Shown here piece after piece: positions 23,447 to 53,426 of a DNA stretch of 64,000 nt; position 1 is the first letter of the stretch, and each line of letters starts with the position of its first letter. The notes below the pieces were generated by a model. The model saw nothing but the letters and a program-made list of their open reading frames with translations. It ran no database searches and was not told the origin of the DNA. The DNA lies in the NCBI GenBank assembly GCA_964387845.1, contig CAYLXA010000008.1, forward strand, positions 44,270 through 108,269, in the 5' to 3' direction. The position numbers and the translations under genes are program-made. This DNA comes from an uncultured bacterium (GTDB lineage Bacteria > Omnitrophota > Omnitrophia > Omnitrophales > Abzuiibacteriaceae).

Positions 23447-26400
23447 GTGCGCAAAAAGCCATTTTTCATCAAAGCAATTGCCCTAGCGCTTTGCTTTACT
23501 TTTATCGCTACCGATACCATCGCTTATTCCGACGCAGCTCAGACATCTCCGCAACTGGCGGAGATGCTGAAGCAGTCCTCGAACTGGTTGAGTTTGAGGG
23601 CCGCTACCATTTCGGGACTTTTCCGCAACGCCGCACCTTCTGTTTCCGGTACGCGTTTACCTGCCGCAGCTCCCAAGTTCGCCCGTTACTTGTCAGAACT
23701 TCGAAATGAAGCCAATGAAAAACCGGTTACGGCTGACTACATATCCGCTCAAACAATTCAGAATCAAAAAACCAATGAAATTACGCCTCCGCCTCAATCT
23801 GAATTACGCCAAGAGAAGCCCAGATTTAAATCGCGGCACAGCTTTTTTAACCATGCCATACAGTTAAGCCGCAACTTATTCAAGCTTTCAGAGTGGAAAC
23901 ACCGGATTTTGAGATTGTCCAGCAGCTTCGGAAACCTTCCAGATGACATTCTGTTTCTAGTTACAACTCTTCCCATATTGATCGGAATATTGATAGTGGA
24001 TGCTCTTGATAATTTTCATGATAACCCCAAAACAAACGCAAGAATATGGTTCTGGGTTGTTACGAGTTCAGCGGTGTGGCTCTTCTCAGTGTTAACTGCC
24101 AATGTTGTTTTATTCAGATTTCAGAAACCTGCAAAAAGAAAATTGCCGGCAAAATCTGATCAGAAAGTTCAACGATCTGAATTGCGCGGCCATTCGGGCG
24201 TAGGGAGTTATGTCATTGGCGATTTGGAATTTAATAAAGGTGATCCAACCGGCTTTGAATTGATTAAACGGTTGATCGGAGAAGTAAGAGCAGGTCTTTT
24301 AACCGGCGAACTTCAAAAAGCCGGCTTGGATCAAGATTCTATTTCACATATATTCCGGCTTGCTTCTTCGCCTAGTAAAAGTGCGCGCGAGCCAATTGGT
24401 TTCAAATACAGTGAAGCGGCCGGTCAGTTTGAGCTGATTAAAAATGATTTGCGCACCTATCTTCATCAGCTTCAGAAAACACAAAATCATGATCACGAAA
24501 TCAATGTTTATGCGCTTGGGTTAGGCAATCTTCCGGTTGAAGCAGAGGAAGTCATCAAGTTGTTTCTGAACGTCATGGAAGAGGAGCTTGGCGAAGCAGC
24601 CAAAAATTGGTCTTTTAATTTTATCGGAATTGATTTTCAAGACGAACCCATCAAAGTCGCGCGAAAATACTTTGCAGAAGATATGGCTTCTCTAAAAGAA
24701 AAAGGATTCCGGAAAGTCACTTTACAAGCTGTGAAGGCAAACGCACTGTCATCTTCAGAGCTGACGCGGGTATTTGAAGAAACGGGTGGCTCTAAGAAAG
24801 CAGACTATTTATTTCATCGGCATGTGATGTATGTAAACCGTGCTTCAAGTTGGTTAAATCAGCTTCGAGGCCTCACTCCTATCACGATGTTACGGCCTGT
24901 GCTTGCTGACGCGTTGGAGTCGTACCTTCAATCACAGAATTTGATCGGCGCATTTACAAAAACAGGTACACGTTATGTTATTGAACCTCTCGCCAGCTCA
25001 GACCCAAGCATACGGGAAGTTGTCATTCCGGGATCCAGCGTTTTGCCGCAGGAAAATGGCGCAGCCGGCAGCGGGATTTATATTGTGAATGACCCCGCCG
25101 TTTTTACAGCAACCGGCTTCATTCAATATCTCCAGGATCAGCTTGGAGAAAATTTCTCCATCTCCGGCCCTCTTCGGGTCGATCGGACTGGAGGCCGGGG
25201 AGAGCTGCGCCGGGCTTCGAATTTTCATTTTGTAAACACAGTACGCAGAGTGTTGCGGCGGGAAATCGCCCAAATAGAAAAAGACAAGTGGCAAAACTGG
25301 GCAGTTGGTTTTGAGCCTGTGCAAGATGTTGCAAGCCACCTTGTCCGCGGTGCAAAGGGCGAGCTATGGATTCATTTGCACTTAACCTACCACGGACATG
25401 ATAAACGTGCTCGTTTCGCCGAAAATGGCGTCTATGACTTGGGATTGCTTTTCCGGATAACCGATCGAGAGAATCAATTAACTCTTGATGCCCCCATGAT
25501 TGAACCGCAAATAGGCCGGTCTGACTATTTTGCTTTTACACGCGCCGAAACGGTGCTTTCTTCCGAGCAGGCGGCCCGGCTTGTGAAGGAGGGAACGGAA
25601 TTTGTCAATTCGCACGCCGGTCCGATCCGCAGTGCAATGCGTCTTGCCAAGAAAAAACCGAGCTCAATTCATAATCTATTGGGCCGTGCAGTATCGCCCC
25701 GGCACGCACGAGGCCTTTACAACATGATGACATTAGGGCATGAGGAAAAGCGTGTGATTGACCGTACAAAAAGGCGCTCGGTTACTTATCGGTTTGTGGG
25801 CAGCCGGCGAAGCGAGCTGCGTCAAAAATCGGAATTAGATTCGGCCCGAGAGTTTGTGGCTCACGCTATCCAAACCGGCCAATTGAAATTAGATCTGTTT
25901 GATCGGGGAAGGGAGCCTGCAAAACAAATTCTTCAGGAAGTTTTAGCTGAAAATCAAAAGCGAAAAACGGATCATATTCAAGAAGTCGAAACCGCAAGGC
26001 ACAAAATAGCAACTTTCGAATCAAGGTTCAAAAAAATCCGTGATGAAATTGATTTTGACCCGTTTAAACCTCTGGCGCCGACGGAGCAGGAAAAAATCAT
26101 GGAATGGTGGGCTGATGACCTGTACATGATGGAATATGAAATCAGAAATTATTTAGCCGAAATTCAGTCGGGGCAGCATCCGTTTTCAGGAAACGAATTG
26201 GATCAAGTAGTGGATGCTTTAATAGCCGCTTACCGGTGGAGTATGGATGTTGTTGCTTTTTTTGAAAAACAAAAAGCAGAACTATTATTCTTTCGAAATC
26301 AAGAGACCACCGACAGCGAAGAGTCGGCCGATACCATGGCGGCACTTTCAGGCGCATTTTCAGTTTTAGCCGACATCAAATCTCCGCGCGGACAAATCCC

Positions 26401-29400
26401 GGAAAATGTTTTTTTTGCCATAGCTGCAACCAAGCGCCACAAAGCGAAAGAATTTTTACTTTCTGTTCTTCGTGAGATTGGTTTCGATAAAACAAAATCC
26501 GAAACCCAGAAAATCGTGAGAGGAAGGGCGCTTAATTATCTGTTTGCCCACTTTCACAGCTCGGAACTTGCAGCACTGGCCCGGCAGGCAATTGAAAATT
26601 TAGGCAGAGAGCAAAGATTTGATTACGATGGCTGGGCATTTGATAGCGCGTTCATGGAACTTTTGCCTTATCTCGGAGATGAGAATGTTAAAGCGTATAT
26701 TTTTAATTACTTAAAAGATGATTTTCAATTCGGAAAAGCTCTCGAAGCTGGGAACTGTTTGGAATACTTGCTGTTCGATTTAGAAACCGCGGAGGTCCCG
26801 GGTTGGTTTAAGGAGCGCTTGCAGATTTATTCGGAAAAAAATGCAGCGGCTATGGATGATTTTGGAATTACGGAAAATCAGGAAGCCTATTTAAATCGAA
26901 TTAAAAAATTAAATGATTTTCTAGCTCTAAAAGAAGCCGGAATCGGGCTGCCGTCTTATCAATTTTCAAAATACGTTTTTCGGCCTATTCATTCACAGGA
27001 TGAAATAGACACACTGCGCAAAATGAGCGGTTCATTTCCCGGACGACGCCCTGGTTGGAGCCCATGGGATATGACCGATTTTGTATTGGAAGATAGCAAG
27101 ACCCGTCAAATTGTCGGAGGCGGCATGATTTCGGAGCATGACTACGACACAGAAGCGCACCATATTCATCTTGTTGCTCTGAGTGACCAGCTGCAAGGCC
27201 GGGATAGGGCAGATGCGTTTGTGTTTATTCTCGCCGGCATGTTGCAATCCATGTCGCCAAAAATCAAAGGCCGGAAAGTTGTTTGGCGCACATGGGTAAA
27301 AGATATTCTGGAAAAGACACTCGCGCTTGATTTGGCGGGCGTTGATTTAGAACCTCTCATCAATCAAAACCCTGATGATGCACGCTCGGAATTGCTCAGT
27401 AAGCCTGAATCGCAGAATCCTATCCTCGAAATCAATCAAGATTGGCGAAACATTTTTGATGACAACGCAAAACCGCTGGTGGTGGATGTCGGGTTCGGAA
27501 ACGGAGAAACACTGCTTTACCGAGCACAGCACGAGCCGGACAAAAATTTCATCGGTATCGAACTTCCCGAAGAGCCGTATGCGGATATGCTGGCTGAAAG
27601 GATTCAAACAGTGGGAATCAAAAACCTAAAAGTCCTCAAAGTGGCTGATTTTGAGGCATTTCGCACTCAACTCAAATTCGGGAACCAAGCAATCGTTTCA
27701 GAGCTAACTTATTACGATCCGTTTCCGGATAGTCCTTATGTATTTAGAGAACATACCGCTGATTTACAGCAAATTTTAAAACCCGGCGCGCTCGTTAAAA
27801 TCATGGTTTTTGAACACGAATTTTGGCAAGAACTGTCCGGCATTTTTGAATCCAACGGATTTCAAACGCTAAATCCTGCCGACCATGTTTTTGAGGATAA
27901 TCATGATACGCAGGATTCAAATGAGGCATTTAGCACTCAACTGAAACTTATTTTCCGATGGCCCGGTCTATCATCAAATCGTTCCGAATTGCGCCAAGAC
28001 CTCAAAATTCAGACGATTCTAAACGATATTGCCCAAAGCAGATTGATTTCGGAGAATCAGCCGGAAACTCGGTCTTTTTTTAATAGAATTTCGGATCGGT
28101 TAAAACAAAAATCAGTTTCCCAAACTTTCTTTTTGACCGGATTGTTACTTTCATCTTATGTCTATATTTTATTCGAGCGCTGGCTTGCTGCCGAGCCGGT
28201 CGAATCGAATGCTCAAGAAATAGCTGCCGCCATTTTACTATTGGGCATTATTTCTACGATTTTTACCACGATCGTTAAGAGAATGAATAAGTCTAGTACA
28301 TCCTGGCGCTGGGATGTTATTAGCTTTTCGGAAAATCAAATCATAGAAGATGCATTGACTTTTCTGGACCCTCACAAACATCAATTAAATCCCAATGTGG
28401 ATATTATTGTTGAGAAAAGAAGCCACAGGTTTAAGCGTATTGCCATCGGATTTTTCAAAGAAAGTTTAAAAAATCTTGGCGCCGGTGCAATGTTTTTATT
28501 GATAGGAGGCTTTTTAGCTTGGAAAATTGGATACGGCCTTCTTGATTTGTACAAGCAAGACCTGCACGCTGCATTTAAAGTCCCTGTCTATGGCATATTC
28601 GGCGCGGGGCTGATTGTGTTTGGTTTTGTGGGCATGATGGGATTTACCGTGCTTTTTCTATCTCCGTTCATTGCTCTTATGCAGGCTTGGGATGGAGAGT
28701 TTTCAGATAAGGGAATCGAGGACCAAAGAATTTTTGTCCAGCACCAAGAATCCGAAGATGTTTTTTACGAGACGCTAGTTGAAGAATTAAATCACCGTTT
28801 CAAACTCCGCCGAGAGCCGCTTCCGGAGTTTCCAAAAACACTGGATGGTTTGCGGCTCGCCATGATACTCAAACGCTACGGCCTCCCCGGCAGTGAAATT
28901 GCGAATCGTTCCGCCTCCGGCCTCCTCCGGGTCTTGCGCCCTGAAGGGTCAGAGACCGCAGACCGTAACGCTCTCCGAGCCAACGGCTCGATGGAGCCGA
29001 GGGCACGGGGGGAACTTCGGCAGTCGGAACCTCGGAAGATGAGCAGGGCTGAGCTCGCCTCTTTATTCAGGGCGCAGCTACGCGAGGCGAATTTCATTGC
29101 ATCGATACCGGTGTTGATACAACACGTATGGAATGTAATCGCCAAATTAGCAAAGCCCCTCAACTTCCAGTTTCGCGAACTAGGCCTAACGCAAGAGCTC
29201 CTCCGTTTGCAGACAGGGTTTTGGATCACCCGATTTGGGCCTGAAGACCGGATGTGGTGGGGACTCCGCGACGGCATGAAGTTCGGAGATACCGTTAATT
29301 GGTGGGGGCCTAAACAAAAAAGACCGGAGCCCCTGGGTTTTCATACCGGGATTGATTTTGTGATGTATCAAAATTTTCAAAAGGCCTGGAAAACAATTCC

Positions 29401-32400
29401 GGAAGGAACCGAAGTGCAGGCACTCTACGGAGGCACGGTGGTTTCCGTATTTCAAGACGACATGCAGAGCACCCTTGTTGTCAATCAAGAGATTACCGAT
29501 ACAGACGGAGGAAATACGCTGGTCACCATTTATGCGCACATAGAGCCGGAAACTAACGTTCAGCCGGGCGTAAAAATTGAGGCTGGCGATGTCCTGGGCC
29601 GAATCAGGCGGTCGCGCAATGAGCGTTCGATTGTTTCGCCTCATCTTCACTTATCGATCGGATGGGCAAAGCCCGAATTTTTTGAACGTCTCAAAAGCGA
29701 CGGCGTCGATTGGCCGTTTGTGGATGCTTTGGCAAAAGAAGGCCTTCTGACTTATGTCGATCCGCTTACATTTTTGGATAAAAATGAAGCCGATCATTTT
29801 TTTATGAATGCCCAGCACAACAAATTAAAGAAAATTCTGATTCTAAATACACAGCCAGGCGCTCAATTTTTTCTGACCCGGCAAGTGATTGAAAAACAAT
29901 TTCCCGGTGTCACGACACTCGCTGTAAGAAGTTTTGAAGAAGCGCAGAAAATTTTAAATGACCCGTCCAGCGAAATTGATGCGGTAGTCCGTGTTGACGA
30001 ATCGGCATCAATCAGTTTCCCTAGAAAATATTTAAAACGCACGGCCGTTTTAGATTATCAAGAAAAAAACAAAAGAGAATTCTTACGCCAACTGCATGTC
30101 GTGAATGTGATCGGCCGCTTGTATCACGAACCGATCAGCCGTCTCAACATTCGCTACCGGCTTCAGCGGCGCATCCGTCAGGCGGGAATCCGGACAGTGG
30201 GGCAATTGGTTGACCTTGCCAACCTGCCGAAGAAATTTCGAAAGTTTACAACGGGCCTTTCTAAAGTTCCGGAGGGCCTTGAGCGCCGTTTGCAAGGCTC
30301 TCGCTACAAGGATGAGATCATCCGCGCAATCGTCTCTGTCCAGCCCCAGGCCATTCTGACACGCTCCATTTTGCACAGGCGGTCGCTTGGATTTTTCCAA
30401 ATGGCGTACCGACTCACATTTGGATTTGAATACCATCCCGAGACGCGCAATTTTGCGGAGCTGATTTTATTCTTAAATGGTTTATCCGGCAGTGTTTTCA
30501 AAGAGCTGGTCAAACAATTTGACGTCCATATTCAAACCGATTTAATCGATATTTTGCAGCGTGTTGCTCGGATTGCGCCCGAAGCCATTTCTGTCAACGT
30601 TCTGGAGATGTTTATCGATGACGAAGAGACTCCCAAGCGCATGCGCGAAAATTTCAATACCCTGGCAGATTTAATTCACATGGCAAGGAATGATACCAAA
30701 CGGTTTAAGGAGATTTTTGGATATCAAATTTCATGGCATGTTTTGCTCTTGCTTCTTGAAATTCTTTACGATGCGGTTCCGGGAGAAATCATGTGGCAGG
30801 AATGGCCTGACCTTGTCCACACCGTTCTGAATCCGCACAATCTTCCACGCACATTCGGCAGCGGCGGGTTAAGCGGGCATATCAACGCTTACTCAGCGGC
30901 CATTCAAGCACATTGGCGCCGGTTGATGGCGGAGCATAAGGGATATGCAAAAAGAAAAGACCGCTCAGAACTTCGGCAGGCGGGAGATCGGCAAATTTTC
31001 CAGAGGGCATTTCAGGGAATTGCTTTCGGTGGATATGGAGCGGGGCTTATTGCTGCGACTTGGCAGATGCTTACCGTTTATCCGCAAATGTTGAGGCCGT
31101 CCTTATTTGTGATTCTGCTTACCTGGAATTTCTATCAGATCGTGAAACTAATTCTCAAGCAGCCGTTTGTCAGTCAGGAAAAGATAAACCAAGAAAAGTA
31201 TATTAACCGCCAACTTATCATTACCCATTTGCCGCAGCTTGGACTCATCAAGGCGCACATGCTAGCACCGTGGCTTGAGGCTTTTATGCAAGCGCCGGAA
31301 GTTGGGGCCTTGTTTTTGACGGTCTCCGGTTTGCTGGTTTCAAAATTGGCCTTTGACAGCTATCTGCGCAATGACGGCAGAGCATCGGGAAGGTCCGAAT
31401 TGCGCACCAATGACCCGGAAGAGCCGAATGCCAAAAATCCACGCACGTCTACTTACGAGACTATTATCTCTAACCGCCCGCAAATGAACCCAACTGAAAG
31501 TAATACTGAACAAGCAAGCCTGTTCATGGCACCGCTTGAAAACGTAACACCGGATGCGGTCCGGTGGCTTGACCGAGTGTTTAATAGCCGGCTTCCGAAG
31601 GGCCAGTATGTTTTTGTCGGTGTTGTTGTCGATCGCAAAAGCAAAGACATCCAGGCTTTTCAGGATGGCGTTTACATGATTGCAAAATTTCTGGAAGTCG
31701 GCGGCGCATTTGAAGAAATCGGATTGAACGAGATCAAAAATAAAAAACTTCGCCGCAGAATCACGGCCGTCGGCAAAGGATCGTCGGTGCGCGTGATCGA
31801 ATTTGCGAGTGTCGGCGGGGGCGATGATTATGAAATTCCGCTGCGCCGCCTTCAGGGTGTAGTGGAAGATTATTACAGCAATGAACCGATTGTCTGGATC
31901 CCGATATCACCGGAAGGAGAACTTTCAAGCACATTGGGCTGGAAGCCCAAAAACCGGGCTTTTCATTTGACGTTAGTGCATCAGGCACCGGAGCAAGAGC
32001 CGGAGGCGCGCTCTGAGCTTCGCAATGATGGTGGAATTATTCTTGAAGCCGGACAGCAAATCAAAGCGGTTGAAGGTTATCAAATGCAGCTTCAAGAAAA
32101 CGGTAGCGTTGCATTTTACCGTGAACGGTTAAGCAGCCCTGAGCCGGACCCTGTTGAGGTAGTCAAACCCACCATGGCCGGCATGCCTGTTTATGATGAA
32201 GCAGGCAATATCATGGGCTATGTTGGCATCACACATGACTTTGAAGGCCAAGGGGAAGATAGAAAATTAATTGCAAGAACCGCATTTTATCCGGAGCCTG
32301 AATTTGATATTGAGAAAACGCATGTGCCGTCTACATGGCCTGCTTGGGAGCTGCTCAAGGCGGTTGGGCTTTTGATTCCAAAAGAGGACGCGCATATTCT

Positions 32401-38400: not shown

Positions 38401-38992
38401 ACAAAACAGGTTGGATGCCGTCATTCATGAAATCCGGAATAATTCATCAAGTGCCGTACGTTCAGAATTAAAAGTTCAGAGCGAGAAATTGGTTCAATTT
38501 TTAACCGGCGGACAAAATAGAGCCACGTCATTGTCGGGCACTGCCGAAGCTGCCAACGCGCGCTCGGCGTTTGTCTTTTTGCCCGGAACCACCAATGAGC
38601 TGGGCGCTGTTTTTAACCAGATTACAGAAGCTCTTGCCGCCAAAAGCGAATTGAGAGCCGAAATCATTGCTTACGTGGATGGCCCGTTGATGGCGCGCAC
38701 AATCCGTGAAATCATCCTCGGTGTTCAGGGCGCTGAGCGTGTCCATATCGTGGCGAGTAATGAAGAGGCCGTGGCTAAAGCTCAGTCTCTAAACGTTGCG
38801 CATGCACATTTGATCGGATGGGAGGGGGAGCTTGAAGCGCCGTTTGTCCAAAATTTGGAGGACAGCTACCTGAAGCTCGGTATTCGCGTGGTGAAGAAAA
38901 ATGTAAGTGATTTCATGAGTTTTCTCGGGCGTGAGGCCGCTCGTTTTATCCAAGGATGGAAATCAGCAGTTCTCTACGCCAAATCCGCATAA
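23447..38992 (+). CDS. Giant (5181 aa) secreted/membrane-anchored mosaic protein with about 18 [RK]SELR linker motifs, 3+ methyltransferase domains, an M23 peptidase domain, HhH and HTH modules, and FYN-G beta-repeats
   Basis: Uninterrupted 15,546-nt ORF. N-terminal signal peptide MRKKPFFIKAIALALCFTFIATDTIAYS. TM clusters at about 23.84-24.12, 28.09-28.69, 31.0-31.35 and 35.46-35.83 kb. Recognisable modules: TrmB-like MTase (VVDVGFGNGETLL...FIGIEL), M23 (GFHTGIDF...PHLHLSIGW), RpoA-alphaCTD-like HhH (ISRLNIRYRLQRRIRQAGIRTVGQLVDL), MTS-type MTase (LVVGSGSGFDTW...FDRIIWNMPEH), PIMT (GQTISQPS...VLEVGAGSGW...PFDKIVVSAG...GGLLIIPV), 3 x HTH, 6 x FY(N/D)xxGxLL repeats. Confidence 0.85.
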   Translation: MRKKPFFIKAIALALCFTFIATDTIAYSDAAQTSPQLAEMLKQSSNWLSLRAATISGLFRNAAPSVSGTRLPAAAPKFARYLSELRNEANEKPVTADYISAQTIQNQKTNEITPPPQSELRQEKPRFKSRHSFFNHAIQLSRNLFKLSEWKHRILRLSSSFGNLPDDILFLVTTLPILIGILIVDALDNFHDNPKTNARIWFWVVTSSAVWLFSVLTANVVLFRFQKPAKRKLPAKSDQKVQRSELRGHSGVGSYVIGDLEFNKGDPTGFELIKRLIGEVRAGLLTGELQKAGLDQDSISHIFRLASSPSKSAREPIGFKYSEAAGQFELIKNDLRTYLHQLQKTQNHDHEINVYALGLGNLPVEAEEVIKLFLNVMEEELGEAAKNWSFNFIGIDFQDEPIKVARKYFAEDMASLKEKGFRKVTLQAVKANALSSSELTRVFEETGGSKKADYLFHRHVMYVNRASSWLNQLRGLTPITMLRPVLADALESYLQSQNLIGAFTKTGTRYVIEPLASSDPSIREVVIPGSSVLPQENGAAGSGIYIVNDPAVFTATGFIQYLQDQLGENFSISGPLRVDRTGGRGELRRASNFHFVNTVRRVLRREIAQIEKDKWQNWAVGFEPVQDVASHLVRGAKGELWIHLHLTYHGHDKRARFAENGVYDLGLLFRITDRENQLTLDAPMIEPQIGRSDYFAFTRAETVLSSEQAARLVKEGTEFVNSHAGPIRSAMRLAKKKPSSIHNLLGRAVSPRHARGLYNMMTLGHEEKRVIDRTKRRSVTYRFVGSRRSELRQKSELDSAREFVAHAIQTGQLKLDLFDRGREPAKQILQEVLAENQKRKTDHIQEVETARHKIATFESRFKKIRDEIDFDPFKPLAPTEQEKIMEWWADDLYMMEYEIRNYLAEIQSGQHPFSGNELDQVVDALIAAYRWSMDVVAFFEKQKAELLFFRNQETTDSEESADTMAALSGAFSVLADIKSPRGQIPENVFFAIAATKRHKAKEFLLSVLREIGFDKTKSETQKIVRGRALNYLFAHFHSSELAALARQAIENLGREQRFDYDGWAFDSAFMELLPYLGDENVKAYIFNYLKDDFQFGKALEAGNCLEYLLFDLETAEVPGWFKERLQIYSEKNAAAMDDFGITENQEAYLNRIKKLNDFLALKEAGIGLPSYQFSKYVFRPIHSQDEIDTLRKMSGSFPGRRPGWSPWDMTDFVLEDSKTRQIVGGGMISEHDYDTEAHHIHLVALSDQLQGRDRADAFVFILAGMLQSMSPKIKGRKVVWRTWVKDILEKTLALDLAGVDLEPLINQNPDDARSELLSKPESQNPILEINQDWRNIFDDNAKPLVVDVGFGNGETLLYRAQHEPDKNFIGIELPEEPYADMLAERIQTVGIKNLKVLKVADFEAFRTQLKFGNQAIVSELTYYDPFPDSPYVFREHTADLQQILKPGALVKIMVFEHEFWQELSGIFESNGFQTLNPADHVFEDNHDTQDSNEAFSTQLKLIFRWPGLSSNRSELRQDLKIQTILNDIAQSRLISENQPETRSFFNRISDRLKQKSVSQTFFLTGLLLSSYVYILFERWLAAEPVESNAQEIAAAILLLGIISTIFTTIVKRMNKSSTSWRWDVISFSENQIIEDALTFLDPHKHQLNPNVDIIVEKRSHRFKRIAIGFFKESLKNLGAGAMFLLIGGFLAWKIGYGLLDLYKQDLHAAFKVPVYGIFGAGLIVFGFVGMMGFTVLFLSPFIALMQAWDGEFSDKGIEDQRIFVQHQESEDVFYETLVEELNHRFKLRREPLPEFPKTLDGLRLAMILKRYGLPGSEIANRSASGLLRVLRPEGSETADRNALRANGSMEPRARGELRQSEPRKMSRAELASLFRAQLREANFIASIPVLIQHVWNVIAKLAKPLNFQFRELGLTQELLRLQTGFWITRFGPEDRMWWGLRDGMKFGDTVNWWGPKQKRPEPLGFHTGIDFVMYQNFQKAWKTIPEGTEVQALYGGTVVSVFQDDMQSTLVVNQEITDTDGGNTLVTIYAHIEPETNVQPGVKIEAGDVLGRIRRSRNERSIVSPHLHLSIGWAKPEFFERLKSDGVDWPFVDALAKEGLLTYVDPLTFLDKNEADHFFMNAQHNKLKKILILNTQPGAQFFLTRQVIEKQFPGVTTLAVRSFEEAQKILNDPSSEIDAVVRVDESASISFPRKYLKRTAVLDYQEKNKREFLRQLHVVNVIGRLYHEPISRLNIRYRLQRRIRQAGIRTVGQLVDLANLPKKFRKFTTGLSKVPEGLERRLQGSRYKDEIIRAIVSVQPQAILTRSILHRRSLGFFQMAYRLTFGFEYHPETRNFAELILFLNGLSGSVFKELVKQFDVHIQTDLIDILQRVARIAPEAISVNVLEMFIDDEETPKRMRENFNTLADLIHMARNDTKRFKEIFGYQISWHVLLLLLEILYDAVPGEIMWQEWPDLVHTVLNPHNLPRTFGSGGLSGHINAYSAAIQAHWRRLMAEHKGYAKRKDRSELRQAGDRQIFQRAFQGIAFGGYGAGLIAATWQMLTVYPQMLRPSLFVILLTWNFYQIVKLILKQPFVSQEKINQEKYINRQLIITHLPQLGLIKAHMLAPWLEAFMQAPEVGALFLTVSGLLVSKLAFDSYLRNDGRASGRSELRTNDPEEPNAKNPRTSTYETIISNRPQMNPTESNTEQASLFMAPLENVTPDAVRWLDRVFNSRLPKGQYVFVGVVVDRKSKDIQAFQDGVYMIAKFLEVGGAFEEIGLNEIKNKKLRRRITAVGKGSSVRVIEFASVGGGDDYEIPLRRLQGVVEDYYSNEPIVWIPISPEGELSSTLGWKPKNRAFHLTLVHQAPEQEPEARSELRNDGGIILEAGQQIKAVEGYQMQLQENGSVAFYRERLSSPEPDPVEVVKPTMAGMPVYDEAGNIMGYVGITHDFEGQGEDRKLIARTAFYPEPEFDIEKTHVPSTWPAWELLKAVGLLIPKEDAHILKIEDISQTSDSKIHRITVRVPEEQSFPLRGIEILARELIENPSAEQQFDLVYNEKGHLLAVFPVFGNENRAAAEDGLFLDVSPYYFEVPKDIRGESKLLIDQFLREWRQNQQHIQAYQKKHFGSNRMNFWHFSYNNDENNDEDNKEEPLYQFYHLLHSHGHDLSYLGEVEVQSLEHIFYYVSKDPDRKMLLLPIFPTVFPPSGDPQHDTEYHKAILIDPRFDLNENQRTLVVGSGSGFDTWLVSLKTRKTVSVIDINPLAVANTKALAKIAGFKVLARTADNIVDESGKPTFPDARFDRIIWNMPEHVEGDGPSHGQLATQRTKWYLTDHWDGDVDGFSLTRFASGLCDILNPDSRVLIWNSNNEDSILNAFENRGMEVERAGLNYRYSLYFIQPSAAAGELLEPISNSADQRSEPQKHIAVLQRFKHNPTGFMGWLKNEIAEVLTIIDMPSGQFMKLPDAERRKKNQRIENAISMLYGVEDFISAKDAAKIIKNIDEARRMLDEIYQMSEWRKNDFSAIRGGKQDSKLPASTEQAWHARDIFNEFLPKNGLGEALQKYTGDKKVLDTAAEKWLPVFTRVPKHLFMPKYLRQDAYLHDAPYRIGYGQTISQPSLVAFILALLDLEPSDEVLEVGAGSGWLAALMSQQAAHVYATELIPQLAGRAERVIENMGIQNVSIVEADGSVGYPQAAPFDKIVVSAGSPNVPELLVNQLREGGLLIIPVLDPAASKKQKSYKLTLFVKEGGKLTEKLAIDRVNFVDLRGVHGWQPAPKRSELRRAAQPKDSNSEKSTPKPETESDRRIIRAVNYFLKEKRPFNQGDIAKKARVSLQTVTNRKHANPSIARFVDWALEKAPKAEPKSVQALIRAAKQLKKEGKSGVTNSVVADLAGYHPQTVTSISKLYPKVKQAVQGARQSPHAQISPTIQKVVDVIKAAAKKKQVFQNEGQIAQAAEIRPETLSRIKKRRSSYREPFLQLLQYAVSDPDRALEIIKKHFSIHSEQRVSVQASAQDENLRSELRADGAIQDPGMVVTALIGVAAFGILIFGFDSVRERAFKVGSAALKLIRRLFWLWTGVLWISTHLAYAAHRVRPDSQDKIYQATGFDPGDLNYSEFLYPWAIFTVFIYPVAAFGLMRYLNRLVMRRNVLPFETSPSRSIPAHPTTSELDINRKVGTAQPSDQYSKDPLMKGRAELRASGSNPKKKDTSKATDLEKRFKELLEEADRTLEANKQLEDGLDEIHKVLPELPKDIIDGRSELRQSDPIGTASALPGPLAKSELRNFLPNQNPINRLDAKQGSGIGARGNVLEGRSGSNSEFYNYRGEKVLVLPTSTAKGILGLGDFIVVMPRPKPGTQDHILFYNSSGSLLFEAVNVSDYSLVGENMAIKFANGNIQFYDKTGKKLLSSFDHFSNFHPSQIDLQGDLLVFKKSSNEVGFYNSTGSLILRKSKGTDFDSFYVKGSFIVLVKKDNHHVYSGLTGKLIAKTQASVGETAQFDGDFFAVVNWNEFTFYNLQGKKILEKRTGSGDDNFINWSGEGGLLTFDKTHSRTFYDENGKLLAAIQKRVFASRVVNKVLRLEDNADFYEWYDFSPNALSASSKGQKSLDQIFSHNPAMLSRIRDYVKRRYDNPLMSREEPNHDLSSDLDDASNLIQLEKMPTEWIDDLSSLVLTGYNPSDKGARSILKEAAIQLGLIQAPSSQTKEAVPITYNQKALMRILSSGVITEAIRNGQFSFPTTGKRSSLIFLSDDGTNVKRIDETDSAKANVQLEFYLSSDNRTVGVSISVRDDNKASGWRVQHEEPKQLKDLQTSIEPASSKPSLTIVSARKQRTLDELINKVSKFPGWSNPGPSTYSFAHQATQISAFYTGIVPNLQPRWAWHLKVISSGYNLSVVVEDHIQSPGKWITVVKFNNSGSNNSVASQEWGNHLIDIEQNGLKTNIYMTKAYVDSLVKNRIPLKGATIDGVEWEFIPINPKQILPAKSELRTQAEQVSIETLDAALSVEPKAQNRLDAVIHEIRNNSSSAVRSELKVQSEKLVQFLTGGQNRATSLSGTAEAANARSAFVFLPGTTNELGAVFNQITEALAAKSELRAEIIAYVDGPLMARTIREIILGVQGAERVHIVASNEEAVAKAQSLNVAHAHLIGWEGELEAPFVQNLEDSYLKLGIRVVKKNVSDFMSFLGREAARFIQGWKSAVLYAKSA

Positions 38993-48731: not shown

Positions 48732-51700
48732 ATGAAAGTTATGCAAGGCCAAAAATATACCGCTCACCTTAAATTTGTTTCCTTATTCTTAATTATCACA
48801 CTTCTTTTAAACTCAGTTGCTTGGGCAGATCCGCCGAACGCTCATTTCTCGAAACTACCGCCCCATGTTTCGGTTTCTCATGTTAGTGAACCGATTCAAC
48901 TCCGCGATTTAAATGTCCTCGTTGATTACTTGACCGCCGACTTAAAGAACGAAGTTAAAATTGATATATCCAAAGAAACAGGAATCATTCGATCTATTTT
49001 ACGACATGATTCGCATTCTAGCCCTTTTGATTTTGATGTTGTTTTAATTCAGGATGCGCATGTCGATAACGAAGCGCAAACCAATATTCGACAAATTCTT
49101 CATTCTTTGTCAAAACAGATCGACCAACCGTTACTTATTGCGTTGGAGGGTACGAGCGGAAATTTAGAACCGAATATATTAAATTTCTTTCCGGACTATC
49201 CAAAAATCAATTCAATAATTGTGGAGGACTTGGAAAAGAGGGGAGAGCTGACAGGCGCTGAACGCTTCGCGTTTGAAAATCAACGGAATAAAACGCTTCT
49301 GGAATTTTGGGGGGCCGAAAACATTGATCAATACAAACAAAACCTTTCCGAATTTCGAGACGCTCTTCGGTTTTTTATAAATCATACCTCAGAACTCGAG
49401 CAAGCTGAGAGCCGGCTTGCCGGATTTCGCAAGCAAATTTTGAATCCTGAATTATGGTTCTTCCTAGAAAAGAGGGATGCTTTTTTAAAGGAAGAAGTTG
49501 ATTTAGCTGCTTATCTTACTTTTCTTCAGAGTGAGGCGATTCAGCATATAAAGCTTAATTTAGCCGATATTAAGCACCAATTTGATTTTCCAAATCTGGT
49601 TCGCTTTTCAAAACTTAAATACGAGGAAAATAAATTAAATCCTGAAAAGGCTTTGGAAGAATGCAGCAAACTTCTCTCTCTCGTTCAGAAGGAAATACCG
49701 AAAGGAAAAATTCAAAGTTATCTAACAGAACATCTCTGGCATCTTTCAAGAGATGTTTCTTTGCAACTGCCACAAAGTTCTCATCAAAATTTTTTTACTT
49801 CTGACCGACCTGTTATTACAGAAAAATCGCCGAACGTACGAGAGTTGTTTGAAATACTTCACGCTTCTTCGTTTATCTACAAATTTTCATTAGTACCGTT
49901 TCGAAACCTCATCCGTCTCGGACGTTTTTTGGCATTTCAATCGGAAATTGATGCCGCATCATTTTTTCAGGAGGTCCGTAAATTAGAAAGTTTGATCATT
50001 CGACGATTGGCCAAAACGCGCGAAGAGAAAAGACTTTTAGCTGCTGTGACTCGATGGAATTTGGTAAAAAAACTTTATGCACTTGAACTCAGTCGTTCGG
50101 AATTTTTGGATTATCAAAAATCGAAGCCACGGATATTAAAAACAATCTTGCGCTTTTTCCCCGCGCTTCCGGCGCCTGCACTTTCAGAAAAATTCTACGA
50201 TGGAGCATTAAAGCGCGACCATGTTCTTGTCCAAAACGCGCTTAATCATGCGGCCGGACGGCCCGTCATCATGGTAGCGGGCGGGTTTCATGCTGACGGA
50301 ATCGAATCTTATCTTCAAGACAACAATTTATCGTACGCAACCATTTCTCCGTCTATCAAAAACCCGAGCAAAGACCGCGAATCCTATTTTAAAACCTTTC
50401 AAGACGAAAACATCTCCTTTATTGTGGATATGCTGCGCACGAGCAATCCCGGCTTTTTTCGATCTGTCCGCGGCGAAAGACAATTCAATCTATTCGCTTT
50501 GGCAATTAGAAATCAGGAGGCCAATTTAGTTCGCATTTATTCTTTGACCCCCGAACAAGCGCGCTCGGAAATCAGGCAGGCGCTGGATCGGTGGCGTTTT
50601 CAATCCAGATCGGAATTGCGGCAAGACAGAAGTACCATTGTTACACCTGATAAAATCGAATCAAATTTTTCCAACAGTTCAGCAAGTCGCGCTCGAGAAA
50701 CGATCATTCCTCAAAGAATTCATCCCGGCACAATTGAAAAAATGCAAATTCCGTGGAGTTACAAATTAAGTCCAAAGTATTTTTGGAATTATCACAAAGC
50801 TTTAAGCCTGTCGGGCCTGGTTGTTTTTGGCCTGCTTTTATTTACAGCCGTAACCGGAAGAATTTTAGAACCGTTTACTGTTTTTTACTCCACGGTTTTT
50901 GCAGGCCTTTTAATGGCTCAAGCGGCCCGGTTTATCAAGAACCTCCTGATTCCTCCGGCGCATTATGTCATGCGAGATGACGGTGTCGCATTATTAGATA
51001 CTCATAACATAGAAATATTAAATCAAATCGTCTATCAATCCGAGATTCCATCCGCGATTTACATTGCCGTTGAAGATCAATTTGAAGGCAAAGATGAGAA
51101 AAGGCCGAATTATGAGGCCGTAAAAGCCTATGTTGAATTTCGCCAGGGATCATCACAGGGGTTTCGAAAAGTGAAAATCATTCCGCTCAGTAGATTGGGG
51201 CGGTTGTATTACACAAACCTTTACAATCAAAATCAAACCGGTGTGAAAAACATCATTTCAAGAAGTTTTCTCTTTGTGTGGAAATGGAAATTGTGGATAT
51301 GGATGCCTTTACTGCTTCCGGTTTGGTTGGCCGCAAATTTTCTCACGTTTGGTTATCTCAATCACGATTCTTTAATTCATTTTTACGGCGTAAAACCATT
51401 GCAAGGATGGGTAAGCTTGACGGATGTATCCGAATGGCTTCTGCATCTCAAATGGAGTTTTCTGCATCGAATCGAAATTCTCTTGTTCCTGGCGAATGAT
51501 TGGTTTAACAACACAAACAGCCTGTCCCCATGGTTTCAAACTATCGTATCGAATATTTTAACCAATCTAAGCGCCAAGTTATTTTCGTTATCAGAAACGC
51601 CGGGGTTATTCAGCTTGTACGCGGCAAAAGAAAAGGCAACAGACTACATTGCCTGGACTACGGTGATGGAGTCACTGACGTTTATCAGTTTTTTAGGTTT

Positions 51701-53426
51701 GGTAACGTTGGCGATGCTTTGGCTCCATTGGCAGCGGAGCCGCGAGAAAATTACTTATACGTTAACTGGCAAATCGCTTCCTGCGAAAGGAAAAATAAAA
51801 GGAATTTTTAATATAGGACTGATATCAATTCTGTTTTTAGCGGTCCCGGTTTTAATAGCCCCTCTCACCAATGGATTTATTTTGAGCCCGGTTGCGCAAA
51901 AGGCAATTCAGAATGACTTTAGCGAAGACAGGTCTTCGCTGGGTTTTATGTTTAAATATGCGGTTGAGCGGCAAGAGAATATTCGAAAAGATGATGAGGG
52001 ATTGAGAAGAGTGTTTGTGAAACTTCTCGAAAAGTTTGGGAAGGACGAAGATTTCACCAAAAACGGAGCATTTGACAAATATTTTGGGCGGCTCGGTCTG
52101 CAGGAATTTGAGTTTTTGATTAATCAATATCCGGAAGCGCGAACAGGGCTTTTGCAGTTATTAATCAAAGATCTGAACTTAGATCAAATTTTATTAACAC
52201 CCGGTATGGCGGCTCAAAGATTTCCTGGAAGCATTCAAGTTAAAGACAAGATCGACAAAATAAAGAATGTTAAATTGCCGGCAGATTTGAAAAAATTAAA
52301 ATTAGTTTTTGAAAACATGATTCAAGAATGGGAATCGGGAGGCAGCGAGCTTTTCAATGATCTTTTGAAGATCCAGGTTTTTGCGTTTGAAGATCAATAT
52401 TCTCCACTTTATATTGTTCCCTTAGGAGAAGAAGATCAGCTGGAAAAGTTTTTGAAGAATCTTGGAGAATTTGAAAAACCTCAGCAAGGGACAGAGGCTT
52501 TAGTTCCGGCATTGATTAAATTGGCCAAGAAGATGAGTTATTTGCCAAAAATAAGCCTGCAAGTGCCCAAGGCTAAAGATTTCAACCGGTCAGAGTTGCG
52601 CAAACCAACTTCGCGTTCTCAAATTTTATCGCGAATGCCGGATCATAACAATAAACATATTCACCATGCACTAAGCGCACGATTTTCATTTCAAGCTTCC
52701 GTGCTTTTTTTAGGAATTTTACCGGCCGCGTTCTCTGGAATTTCACCACCCGCCGGAAGACCGAATTTTGGTCTGCAGTCTTTACAGCATGAAGATTTTC
52801 AAGCAGTGATCCGATGGCTGCGTGAAAAAACGGATTCGCGGCTCAAAAAACAAGCAATTGAGTATTATACCGGTTTTTTTCAAGCGGAGCCCTCAACCGT
52901 TCCACAAACCATTATTCTTACGAGCGATTTGTTAACCCCCGAAGTGGTTGATGGAATTAACCAAGTAAGCTTAAATCCAAACGCAAAAATCATCGTTTAT
53001 GATGTAGGTGATTTAACAGCGCGATCCCTTCTTCCGCAACTTATCCGTGCGTCAGTTCGAAAAATATCAAAAAATGGCGCGGGATTTGATATCAATCAAT
53101 TCTTAAAAGAGGAAGTGCGCTCCGATAGATTGCCGCATACCGCTGTCTGGACAACGGAAACACATTTCGCAGATATTGAAAAAAATAAAGGTTTTCAATT
53201 TGTGGCGAAAAATCAATTGATGCGCGACGACAAATTGCGCGGGGCAGCGCTTTTATTACAATTCTTGCTCGTTCAGTTAGTTGCCAAACTCGGCATATTT
53301 CCTCAAAATCGAGACGAACTTTGGAAAAGAACATCCGACAATCGAATTGAATTTAATTTAACCAATCGAATTTTACAAATCCAAATGATTCATTCGGAAA
53401 TAAAAACGCTGCTGAGTTTTGCTTGA
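48732..53426 (+). CDS. Large (1564 aa) secreted/membrane hypothetical protein carrying two RSELR motifs, in a low-GC segment
   Basis: Uninterrupted 4.7 kb ORF. N-terminal signal/TM region (FLIITLLLNSVAWA), internal TM cluster at about 50.78-51.85 kb, mostly predicted helical. RSELR at 50607-50621 and 52587-52601. GC is clearly lower than the flanking housekeeping genes, with a very AT-rich upstream region. Confidence 0.75.
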   Translation: MKVMQGQKYTAHLKFVSLFLIITLLLNSVAWADPPNAHFSKLPPHVSVSHVSEPIQLRDLNVLVDYLTADLKNEVKIDISKETGIIRSILRHDSHSSPFDFDVVLIQDAHVDNEAQTNIRQILHSLSKQIDQPLLIALEGTSGNLEPNILNFFPDYPKINSIIVEDLEKRGELTGAERFAFENQRNKTLLEFWGAENIDQYKQNLSEFRDALRFFINHTSELEQAESRLAGFRKQILNPELWFFLEKRDAFLKEEVDLAAYLTFLQSEAIQHIKLNLADIKHQFDFPNLVRFSKLKYEENKLNPEKALEECSKLLSLVQKEIPKGKIQSYLTEHLWHLSRDVSLQLPQSSHQNFFTSDRPVITEKSPNVRELFEILHASSFIYKFSLVPFRNLIRLGRFLAFQSEIDAASFFQEVRKLESLIIRRLAKTREEKRLLAAVTRWNLVKKLYALELSRSEFLDYQKSKPRILKTILRFFPALPAPALSEKFYDGALKRDHVLVQNALNHAAGRPVIMVAGGFHADGIESYLQDNNLSYATISPSIKNPSKDRESYFKTFQDENISFIVDMLRTSNPGFFRSVRGERQFNLFALAIRNQEANLVRIYSLTPEQARSEIRQALDRWRFQSRSELRQDRSTIVTPDKIESNFSNSSASRARETIIPQRIHPGTIEKMQIPWSYKLSPKYFWNYHKALSLSGLVVFGLLLFTAVTGRILEPFTVFYSTVFAGLLMAQAARFIKNLLIPPAHYVMRDDGVALLDTHNIEILNQIVYQSEIPSAIYIAVEDQFEGKDEKRPNYEAVKAYVEFRQGSSQGFRKVKIIPLSRLGRLYYTNLYNQNQTGVKNIISRSFLFVWKWKLWIWMPLLLPVWLAANFLTFGYLNHDSLIHFYGVKPLQGWVSLTDVSEWLLHLKWSFLHRIEILLFLANDWFNNTNSLSPWFQTIVSNILTNLSAKLFSLSETPGLFSLYAAKEKATDYIAWTTVMESLTFISFLGLVTLAMLWLHWQRSREKITYTLTGKSLPAKGKIKGIFNIGLISILFLAVPVLIAPLTNGFILSPVAQKAIQNDFSEDRSSLGFMFKYAVERQENIRKDDEGLRRVFVKLLEKFGKDEDFTKNGAFDKYFGRLGLQEFEFLINQYPEARTGLLQLLIKDLNLDQILLTPGMAAQRFPGSIQVKDKIDKIKNVKLPADLKKLKLVFENMIQEWESGGSELFNDLLKIQVFAFEDQYSPLYIVPLGEEDQLEKFLKNLGEFEKPQQGTEALVPALIKLAKKMSYLPKISLQVPKAKDFNRSELRKPTSRSQILSRMPDHNNKHIHHALSARFSFQASVLFLGILPAAFSGISPPAGRPNFGLQSLQHEDFQAVIRWLREKTDSRLKKQAIEYYTGFFQAEPSTVPQTIILTSDLLTPEVVDGINQVSLNPNAKIIVYDVGDLTARSLLPQLIRASVRKISKNGAGFDINQFLKEEVRSDRLPHTAVWTTETHFADIEKNKGFQFVAKNQLMRDDKLRGAALLLQFLLVQLVAKLGIFPQNRDELWKRTSDNRIEFNLTNRILQIQMIHSEIKTLLSFA

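Follow-up and report, generated by a model that had tools for sequence, protein, structure and literature searches.

A 64,000-nucleotide (nt) stretch of contig CAYLXA010000008.1 from an uncultured Omnitrophota bacterium (the window) holds a giant open reading frame (ORF), of which nt 29162-29821 encode, by sequence and model evidence, a zinc peptidase domain of the M23/LytM fold with a complete set of predicted catalytic residues. By alignment and model the domain is the first of a conserved three-domain cassette, and by its sequence features the clade to which it belongs is distinct within M23 and not lysostaphin-like. We infer from the sequence that the domain is an active metallopeptidase, and as its substrate we tentatively prefer a peptide or protein from within the giant-protein system over the sacculus. 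The original prediction had placed an M23 domain at 29280-29670, as a candidate module for autoprocessing or wall remodelling; the domain is present there, with wider limits of about 29162-29821. The M23 family is known and its signal-less clade uncharacterised; new are the fusion architecture and the context. The giant ORF and its cassette are laid out as follows.

23447..38992, plus strand: giant ORF, 5181 amino acids (aa), GTG start, uninterrupted
29162..29821, plus strand: M23/LytM-fold peptidase domain, aa 1906-2125, beta-core at aa 1938-2110
29342..29356, plus strand: HxxxD motif with the predicted zinc ligands H1966 (29342-29344) and D1970 (29354-29356)
29537..29539, plus strand: H2031 of YAH, predicted catalytic His, lysostaphin H82 in the alignment
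29642..29650, plus strand: HxH motif with H2066 (29642-29644, predicted catalytic) and H2068 (29648-29650, predicted third zinc ligand)
29831..30058, plus strand: receiver-like (CheY-fold) alpha/beta domain, aa 2129-2204, with a conserved FPG motif
30062..30763, plus strand: all-helical domain of the AlphaFold2 model, aa 2206-2439, last domain of the cassette

The domain matches the Pfam family PF01551 (Peptidase_M23) with an E value of 3.2e-9 and 37.3 bits, above the curated cut-off of 28.7. A profile of the clade (84 relatives) matched M23 chains throughout in the PDB, the best being 8s3m (E=1.4e-7), with 2hsi, 5kqb, 9gy1, 6yj1, 6jmx, 4rny and 3nyy as further chains. The clade profile was required for these matches; a single-sequence phmmer search of the M23 region against the PDB returned a chance nitrile-hydratase match alone. 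Comparison by hhalign with a hand-entered sequence of the lysostaphin catalytic domain pairs H1966, D1970, H2031, H2066 and H2068 with lysostaphin H32, D36, H82, H113 and H115. None of the five residues is lost, and the M23 identity and intact zinc ligands claimed earlier hold. The sequence elements quoted for that claim (GFHTGIDF, ALYGGTVV, TIYAH, IEAGDVLGRI and PHLHLSIGW) all lie in frame in the giant ORF. The LytM beta-sheet fold is present in the AlphaFold2 model, with a predicted local distance difference test (pLDDT) score of 86.3 for the M23 domain and 89.0 for the cassette.

An exhaustive HMMER search with aa 1518-2650 as the query against 1.84 billion representative proteins found 459 relatives at E <=1e-3, with the matches confined to the M23 region and the ~330 residues after it, and a profile search of a larger collection gave 1012 clusters. 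The relatives are mostly 190-230 aa long; the named ones come from metagenome-assembled genomes (MAGs) of Desulfobacterota and are called 'M23 family metallopeptidase' or 'peptidoglycan DD-metalloendopeptidase family protein'. Similarity found in a BFVD search was generic to M23. H1966, D1970, H2031 and H2068 are invariant across 84 clade members (A1: H61, D65, H126, H163), and H2066 (A1 H161) is kept in at least 90% of them. All five active-site residues are also invariant in 14 cassette sequences (A3: H52, D56, H117). An active site that remains invariant at the merely 21-34% identity of these cassettes argues for a working enzyme. The signature of the clade reads W..F.PGMLF.....WWG....R..PHEGLD ... 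DFLG.S ... Y.H ... PHLHLS ... W....L.DPL. Compared with lysostaphin and LytM (MEROPS M23B glycyl-glycine endopeptidases), to which it is only about 18-23% identical, the giant's domain is marked by N-terminal elements peculiar to the clade (GMxF...WW...R), by an inserted hairpin of 11 residues that follows HxxxD (within aa 1971-1985, by hhalign) and, in place of the Gly-rich loop, by DDMQ where the clade has DFLG. It also differs from them in having no SH3b or other wall-targeting domain and in having nearest relatives without signal peptides.

The cassette (aa 1915-2440) consists, in order, of the M23 domain, the receiver-like alpha/beta domain and the helical domain, and was modelled with a predicted template modelling (pTM) score of 0.83. 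BLASTP comparisons of the whole giant protein with its larger relatives showed that aa 1915-2440 are the sole part in common. In the receiver-like domain, a conserved acidic pocket and a phospho-acceptor Asp are both missing. The helical domain, which is conserved with the large relatives P0002 and P0003, bears a helix-hairpin-helix (HhH)-like element, 'GIRTVGQLVDL'; its match to Pfam RNA_pol_A_CTD is sub-threshold (E=0.009). Seven of the large relatives are described below by length and by further content, with helix-turn-helix abbreviated HTH.

P0002: 5822 aa; Pfam matches besides M23 are an APH-type kinase, GT2 and five HTH repeats
P0003: 5936 aa; from a Verrucomicrobiae MAG
P0033: 3387 aa; no Pfam match above threshold besides M23
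P0046: 2554 aa; Pfam matches besides M23 are NUDIX and GNAT; five RSExR motifs
P0116: 2079 aa; Pfam match besides M23 is GT2 (weak)
P0059: 1592 aa; Pfam matches besides M23 are a glucosamine-6-P isomerase-type domain and NUDIX
P0004: 1293 aa; Pfam match besides M23 is Trypsin_2

A peptide or protein substrate is favoured by the signal-less relatives, the receiver-fold and HhH-like domains, the cytoplasm-type neighbours and the want of a wall-binding module, and also by the replaced M23 loops of the clade (DFLG/DDMQ, the hairpin insertion and the WW...R extension). Among the free-standing relatives of <=260 aa, 236 of 238 have no N-terminal hydrophobic segment, which argues that the small relatives are not Sec-exported; their conserved core begins at median residue 37. 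Free-standing members are ~200 aa long in Desulfobacterota and ~320 aa long, with M23 and receiver-like domains, in Verrucomicrobiota. One of the latter, P0015 (GCA_016595505.1), has no signal peptide and is encoded among cytoplasmic corrinoid-methyltransferase genes. Searches with Pfam, NCBIfam and a relaxed Pfam scan of ten segments found no wall-targeting module (LysM, SH3b, SPOR, PG_binding or OapA) in the giant, and Pfam found no wall-binding module in P0002. Such modules are common in peptidoglycan-hydrolysing M23 enzymes, without being obligatory. The proteins of the clade have neither export signals nor wall-binding modules; the automatic annotation 'peptidoglycan DD-metalloendopeptidase' is probably wrong for them, which points to a function away from the wall.

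The neighbourhoods of the free-standing relatives (four Desulfobacterota contexts and that of P0015) gave no functional clue. An identity as prophage endolysins was rejected for the small relatives, since three of the four Desulfobacterota contexts have no phage genes and the fourth has a single integrase ~2.4 kb downstream. In two of these four contexts (L004 6001-7142 and L006 6001-7010), a YhbY (CRS1_YhbY) gene directly follows the small M23 gene and a phosphoribosyltransferase gene lies nearby, a neighbourhood that may be conserved.

The compartment of the cassette bears on whether the M23 domain could instead be a peptidoglycan endopeptidase outside the cytoplasmic membrane, which would remodel the cell's own wall round an envelope-spanning giant or open the wall of a host or prey on contact. 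The arrangement would be akin to the LytM domains built into the type IV secretion protein PrgK and into phage ejection and tail proteins. We regard this role as less likely than the one favoured above, but as a serious alternative. Textbook Sec signal peptides, with a K/R n-region, a hydrophobic core and an AxA-like site, are found on the giant (23447-23530), on a second ORF of the window (48732..53426) and on nine relatives (P0002, P0003, P0005, P0008, P0013, P0033, P0046, P0059 and P0081), whereas the nearest relatives of the domain almost never have export signals. The domain comes after a transmembrane (TM) cluster, its five catalytic residues are intact, and the M23 family offers precedent; its substrate-groove loops, however, are unlike those of wall-active M23 enzymes. 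The close structural neighbours are all wall-active or wall-associated LytM domains, including those of PrgK and a cyanophage pre-ejectosome protein, but no wall-binding module accompanies the giant's domain and its fusion partners are receiver-like and HhH-like. A role in attachment and wall degradation has been proposed for Omnitrophota giant proteins (10.1101/2023.11.21.568195; PMC10066038). The neighbouring modules tell against such a role here. Stretches free of TM segments in P0046, P0059, P0116 and P0002 hold the M23 domain together with NUDIX, GNAT, glucosamine-6-P isomerase-type, GT2, APH and HTH modules, and the modules in the cassette's compartment are dependent on S-adenosylmethionine (SAM), ATP, acetyl-CoA or UDP-sugars, or are of the DNA-binding type. 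The K/R-rich flanks of the TM hairpins likewise suggest, as far as sequence can be read for topology, that the soluble units face the cytoplasm. The proteins with signal peptides are made up largely of cofactor-dependent enzymes of cytoplasmic type, so that their topology looks contradictory. Either every soluble module would lie beyond the cytoplasmic membrane, in an effector mosaic passed to another cell, or the N-termini would serve as anchors.

If, as we tentatively favour, the substrate of the M23 domain is a peptide or protein that belongs to the giant-protein system, a candidate lies in a repeated motif that divides the giant. The giant contains 16 copies of the motif [RK][SGA]EL[RK], where 0.12 would be expected, and 14 of SELR, where 0.15 would be. 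The motif starts, the M23 unit and other features bounded by or holding the motif are given below.

Motif starts (nt): 24173, 25196, 25808, 27980, 29006, 30962, 31391, 32009, 34718, 35441, 35963, 36155, 36218, 38324, 38459, 38642
27398-27979, plus strand: TrmB-like (tRNA m7G46-type) methyltransferase unit, aa 1318-1511, ARSELL before and NRSELR after
28121..28690, plus strand: TM cluster, aa 1559-1748, from a hydropathy scan, most likely 4 helices
28889..29110, plus strand: Arg-rich, GC-rich linker, aa 1815-1888, holding LRVLR, RGELR and RAELA
29006-29020, plus strand: RGELR junction motif, opens the M23 unit
29021..30961, plus strand: motif-bounded M23 unit, aa 1859-2505, 647 aa, RGELR before and RSELR after
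30962..30976, plus strand: RSELR junction motif, closes the M23 unit
34733-35440, plus strand: HTH-like unit, aa 3763-3998, motif-bounded, three tandem repeats, Pfam HTH matches all sub-threshold

The motifs sit within Pro/Gln/Asn-rich, hydrophobic-poor linkers, and a small residue (S, G or A) always fills their second position. They divide the giant into units of domain size, the three later TM clusters each forming one. The TrmB-like unit, at 194 aa, has the size of free-standing TrmB, with the motifs at its exact edges. The TM cluster of aa 1559-1748 likewise occupies a unit between motifs (aa 1517-1853), immediately before the M23 unit; its helix count and its fourth helix (aa 1559-1580) come from manual reading of the sequence beside the hydropathy scan. 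Both this cluster and the Arg-rich, GC-rich segment with RGELR, RAELA and LRVLR had been noted before and are borne out: GC content is 62% in the linker and 46.6% in the window, and Arg makes up 16% of the linker but 6.3% of the whole protein. The codons of the motif vary synonymously, and the motif is therefore selected at the peptide level; because the synonymous positions vary freely, an origin in nucleic acid, whether as a repeat in DNA or RNA or as what remains of a Shine-Dalgarno sequence, was rejected. Within the window, R[SGA]E.R is found in the giant and in ORF 48732..53426 only.

The co-occurrence of motif and cassette rests on 13 large proteins, the giant and twelve relatives. RSExR is repeated in the nearest relative, P0002 (11 copies, including ten of RSEQR), and in P0046 (5 copies, with a variable fourth residue) and P0022 (2 copies, RSELR), against 0.03-0.15 expected. 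Each of the four proteins, the giant included, has its M23 cassette within a single unit bounded by motifs; the orthologous unit of P0002 measures 609 aa and is flanked by two RSEQR motifs.

The M23 domain would work on the same membrane side as the SAM-dependent modules of the giant. Foremost among the specific candidates for its role is maturation of the mosaic protein, by cuts in cis or in trans that would fall at, or immediately beside, the R-[S/G/A]-E-L-R junctions delimiting every module. The small second residue (S, G or A) would suit an M23 active site, filling the tight subsite that M23 enzymes normally keep for Gly, Ala or D-Ala. The receiver-like domain would act as a partner in regulation or docking, and the cuts would set free methyltransferase, NUDIX, GNAT, kinase, HTH and membrane-hairpin modules. 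That the M23 domain cuts R-[S/G/A]-E-x-R (RSELR) junctions is a proposition of low probability. The broader proposal, that the cassette could be a dedicated maturation protease of mosaic 'polyproteins' in Omnitrophota and Verrucomicrobiota that cuts lineage-specific R-[S/G/A]-E-x-R junctions, we also hold at low probability.

Several points weigh against junction cleavage by the cassette. Repeated RSExR is absent from 8 of the 12 other cassette-bearing large proteins, one of which, P0003, has a single RSEMR. The linkers of P0033 instead carry the repeats AARLA (at least 7) and SQMSRTDT (3) over aa 908-3046, with the M23 active site unchanged; these repeats too flank the cassette, at aa 2078/2087 and 2451/2464. 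ORF 48732..53426 has RSELR without an M23 domain, which speaks against autoprocessing, and the free-standing Desulfobacterota relatives lie on contigs without RSExR-rich neighbours. Since the M23 region served as bait in the search for relatives, the 'shared core' is partly a selection effect. The Sec signal peptides on all the full-length giants would place the cassette outside the cytoplasm. Known M23 substrates are peptidoglycan peptides or Gly-rich proteins, and we know of no experimentally characterised active M23 enzyme that processes a polyprotein. The original prediction's view of M23 enzymes as normally Gly-Gly specific was too narrow, since the family also has other endopeptidase specificities, among them those of the D-Ala-mDAP (meso-diaminopimelic acid) and D-Ala-L-Ala/Gly endopeptidases. 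A Tiki/ChaN-like domain of the system may, judged from its sequence, be as strong a candidate for a sequence-specific protease as the cassette, or a stronger one. Autoprocessing and wall remodelling are both putative roles, and junction cleavage as such is putative too. A literature search on M23 together with autoprocessing returned nothing relevant, and among the matches listed by a full-text search for RSELR, all were unrelated to protein motifs.

The Tiki/ChaN-like domain is encoded by the partner ORF that shares the motif with the giant.

48732..53426, plus strand: partner ORF, 1564 aa, signal peptide, RSEIR/RSELR/RSELR, multi-TM middle
48909-50591, plus strand: N-terminal domain of the partner ORF, ~500 aa, weakly Tiki/ChaN-like

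The junctions may be cut by another enzyme, either this domain or an unrelated Arg-directed protease, with the M23 cassette as a cargo or accessory module, an arrangement that we consider improbable. The N-terminal domain of the partner is homologous to the post-signal N-terminal domain of 7 of the 12 other cassette-bearing large proteins (P0046, P0003, P0008, P0002, P0005, P0013 and P0033; E 5e-12 to 8e-35), and RSELR occurs in this ORF without M23, but the giant ORF itself has no Tiki-like domain by Pfam, the relaxed scan included. Five of the seven homologues match PF04187 (Tiki superfamily, ChaN), with a best E value of 6.4e-5, though all score below the curated cut-off of 27.7 bits, and the copy in the window is sub-threshold (E=0.058). 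A profile search of the PDB with the domain found no relative. H51, E80, E240, R436 and H461 are invariant in the alignment of the domain, and H51, E80, E240 and H461 echo the 2His/2Glu set of the TIKI family, whose enzymes include a sequence-specific endopeptidase (PMC6254334). The domain is possibly, from these residues and matches, a second and weaker candidate hydrolase of the giant-protein system. The ChaN-type members of the Tiki superfamily are haem binders and not proteases, and junction cleavage itself is putative. The earlier claim that M23 is the only protease-like fold stands for the giant as far as Pfam and NCBIfam reach, M23 being the sole peptidase that they find there (as it is the sole Pfam peptidase in P0002); some 70% of the protein is without a family assignment and may hold another. 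For the system the claim falls, given the candidate domain in the partner ORF. The relaxed Pfam scan, which covered ten segments of the giant without an above-threshold family or with a weak methyltransferase match, found no further protease.

Least probable is a non-catalytic or regulatory LytM module that offers a protein-protein interaction surface within the giant, like EnvC, NlpD, DipM, SpoIIQ and SpoIVFA: degenerate LytM domains, including the activators and scaffolds EnvC, NlpD, DipM and SpoIIQ, have lost their metal ligands, whereas the giant's domain keeps all of them, and the retention of H, D, H, H and H across very divergent relatives is a signature of selection for catalysis.

The giant resembles several known systems in part. 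Like PrgK of the Enterococcus faecalis type IV secretion system, phage phi29 gp13 and the cyanophage A4 pre-ejectosome protein, it carries M23 inside a long multi-domain protein with membrane segments. Those three have an accepted, extracytoplasmic role in opening the wall, whereas the neighbours of M23 in the giant are methyltransferases, receiver-like and HTH-type modules. MARTX toxins, in which modules are released at defined linkers by an internal cysteine protease domain (PMC6254334), are likewise secreted mosaics of several thousand residues, in which unrelated enzyme modules are joined by set linkers and accompanied by a protease within the chain; the giant would work in this way if autoprocessing were right. 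The giant differs from them in that its protease would have a zinc M23 fold and not that of a C80 cysteine protease, its N-terminus is Sec-like and the organism is not a known pathogen; Pfam searches of both halves and the relaxed scan found no C80 domain and no RTX repeats. With the giants of Omnitrophota ('Archaeovorin'-type and multi-enzyme), it has in common a very long ORF, TM clusters, scattered methyltransferase modules and few annotated domains, as well as the NUDIX and GNAT modules, which here are in related cassette-bearing proteins. These traits have been described (10.1101/2023.11.21.568195, 10.64898/2026.06.07.730766, PMC10066038), and a term search found M23 unmentioned in the main text of all three sources. 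At 5181 aa the protein is small by comparison, and no C39, S8 or SecA-like domain was found. The GltB encoded near the giant is 81% and 79% identical to those of two Omnitrophota MAGs, with Verrucomicrobiota next at ~74% by this one marker, and this identity together with the architecture places the locus in the Omnitrophota giant-gene phenomenon.

Whether Omnitrophota giants exist as single chains or as many cut products is an openly stated question; information on cleavage points was lacking, and the giants were hence not split into separate polypeptides for structure prediction (10.1101/2023.11.21.568195). The present locus makes cleavage sites testable, through a junction motif that bounds units, two candidate hydrolases that travel with the motif, and defined residues. 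Junction cleavage by the M23 domain, if true, would make the domain the first M23 enzyme that processes proteins, and the motif the first cleavage code to be defined for giant proteins of bacteria.

The rest of the giant ORF comprises the Sec-signal-like N-terminus, four TM clusters in all, three or four SAM-methyltransferase-type modules and the HTH-like triplet, by Pfam/NCBIfam and hydropathy, in addition to the M23 cassette and the 16 motifs. From nt 29039 onward the window is reproduced in a 28-kb Logan contig (recorded for SRR15237813), with 0 mismatches in 21266 nt. A scan of genome contigs with the 647-aa unit and a scan of metagenome contigs with alignment A4 gave no match, and the degenerate pattern RPEPLGxHTGxD gave one match, out of frame in a high-GC contig, which was rejected as chance. 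A tRNA scan of the window found none. The DNA-binding-type modules are odd within a signal-peptide-bearing giant; P0002 has five clearer HTH repeats, with YPGD/FPGK before each. The gene of P0046 (L003 7158-14822, JGI metagenome 3300020195) lies between genes for NADH dehydrogenase (complex I) subunits, with Complex1_51K, Molybdopterin and NADHdh family genes upstream and a 4Fe-4S ferredoxin-type gene downstream. Two minus-strand ORFs, 28876-29277 (133 aa) and 29186-29650 (154 aa), lie wholly within the giant ORF over the linker and M23 region, and are most likely shadow ORFs that arise from the local rise in GC.

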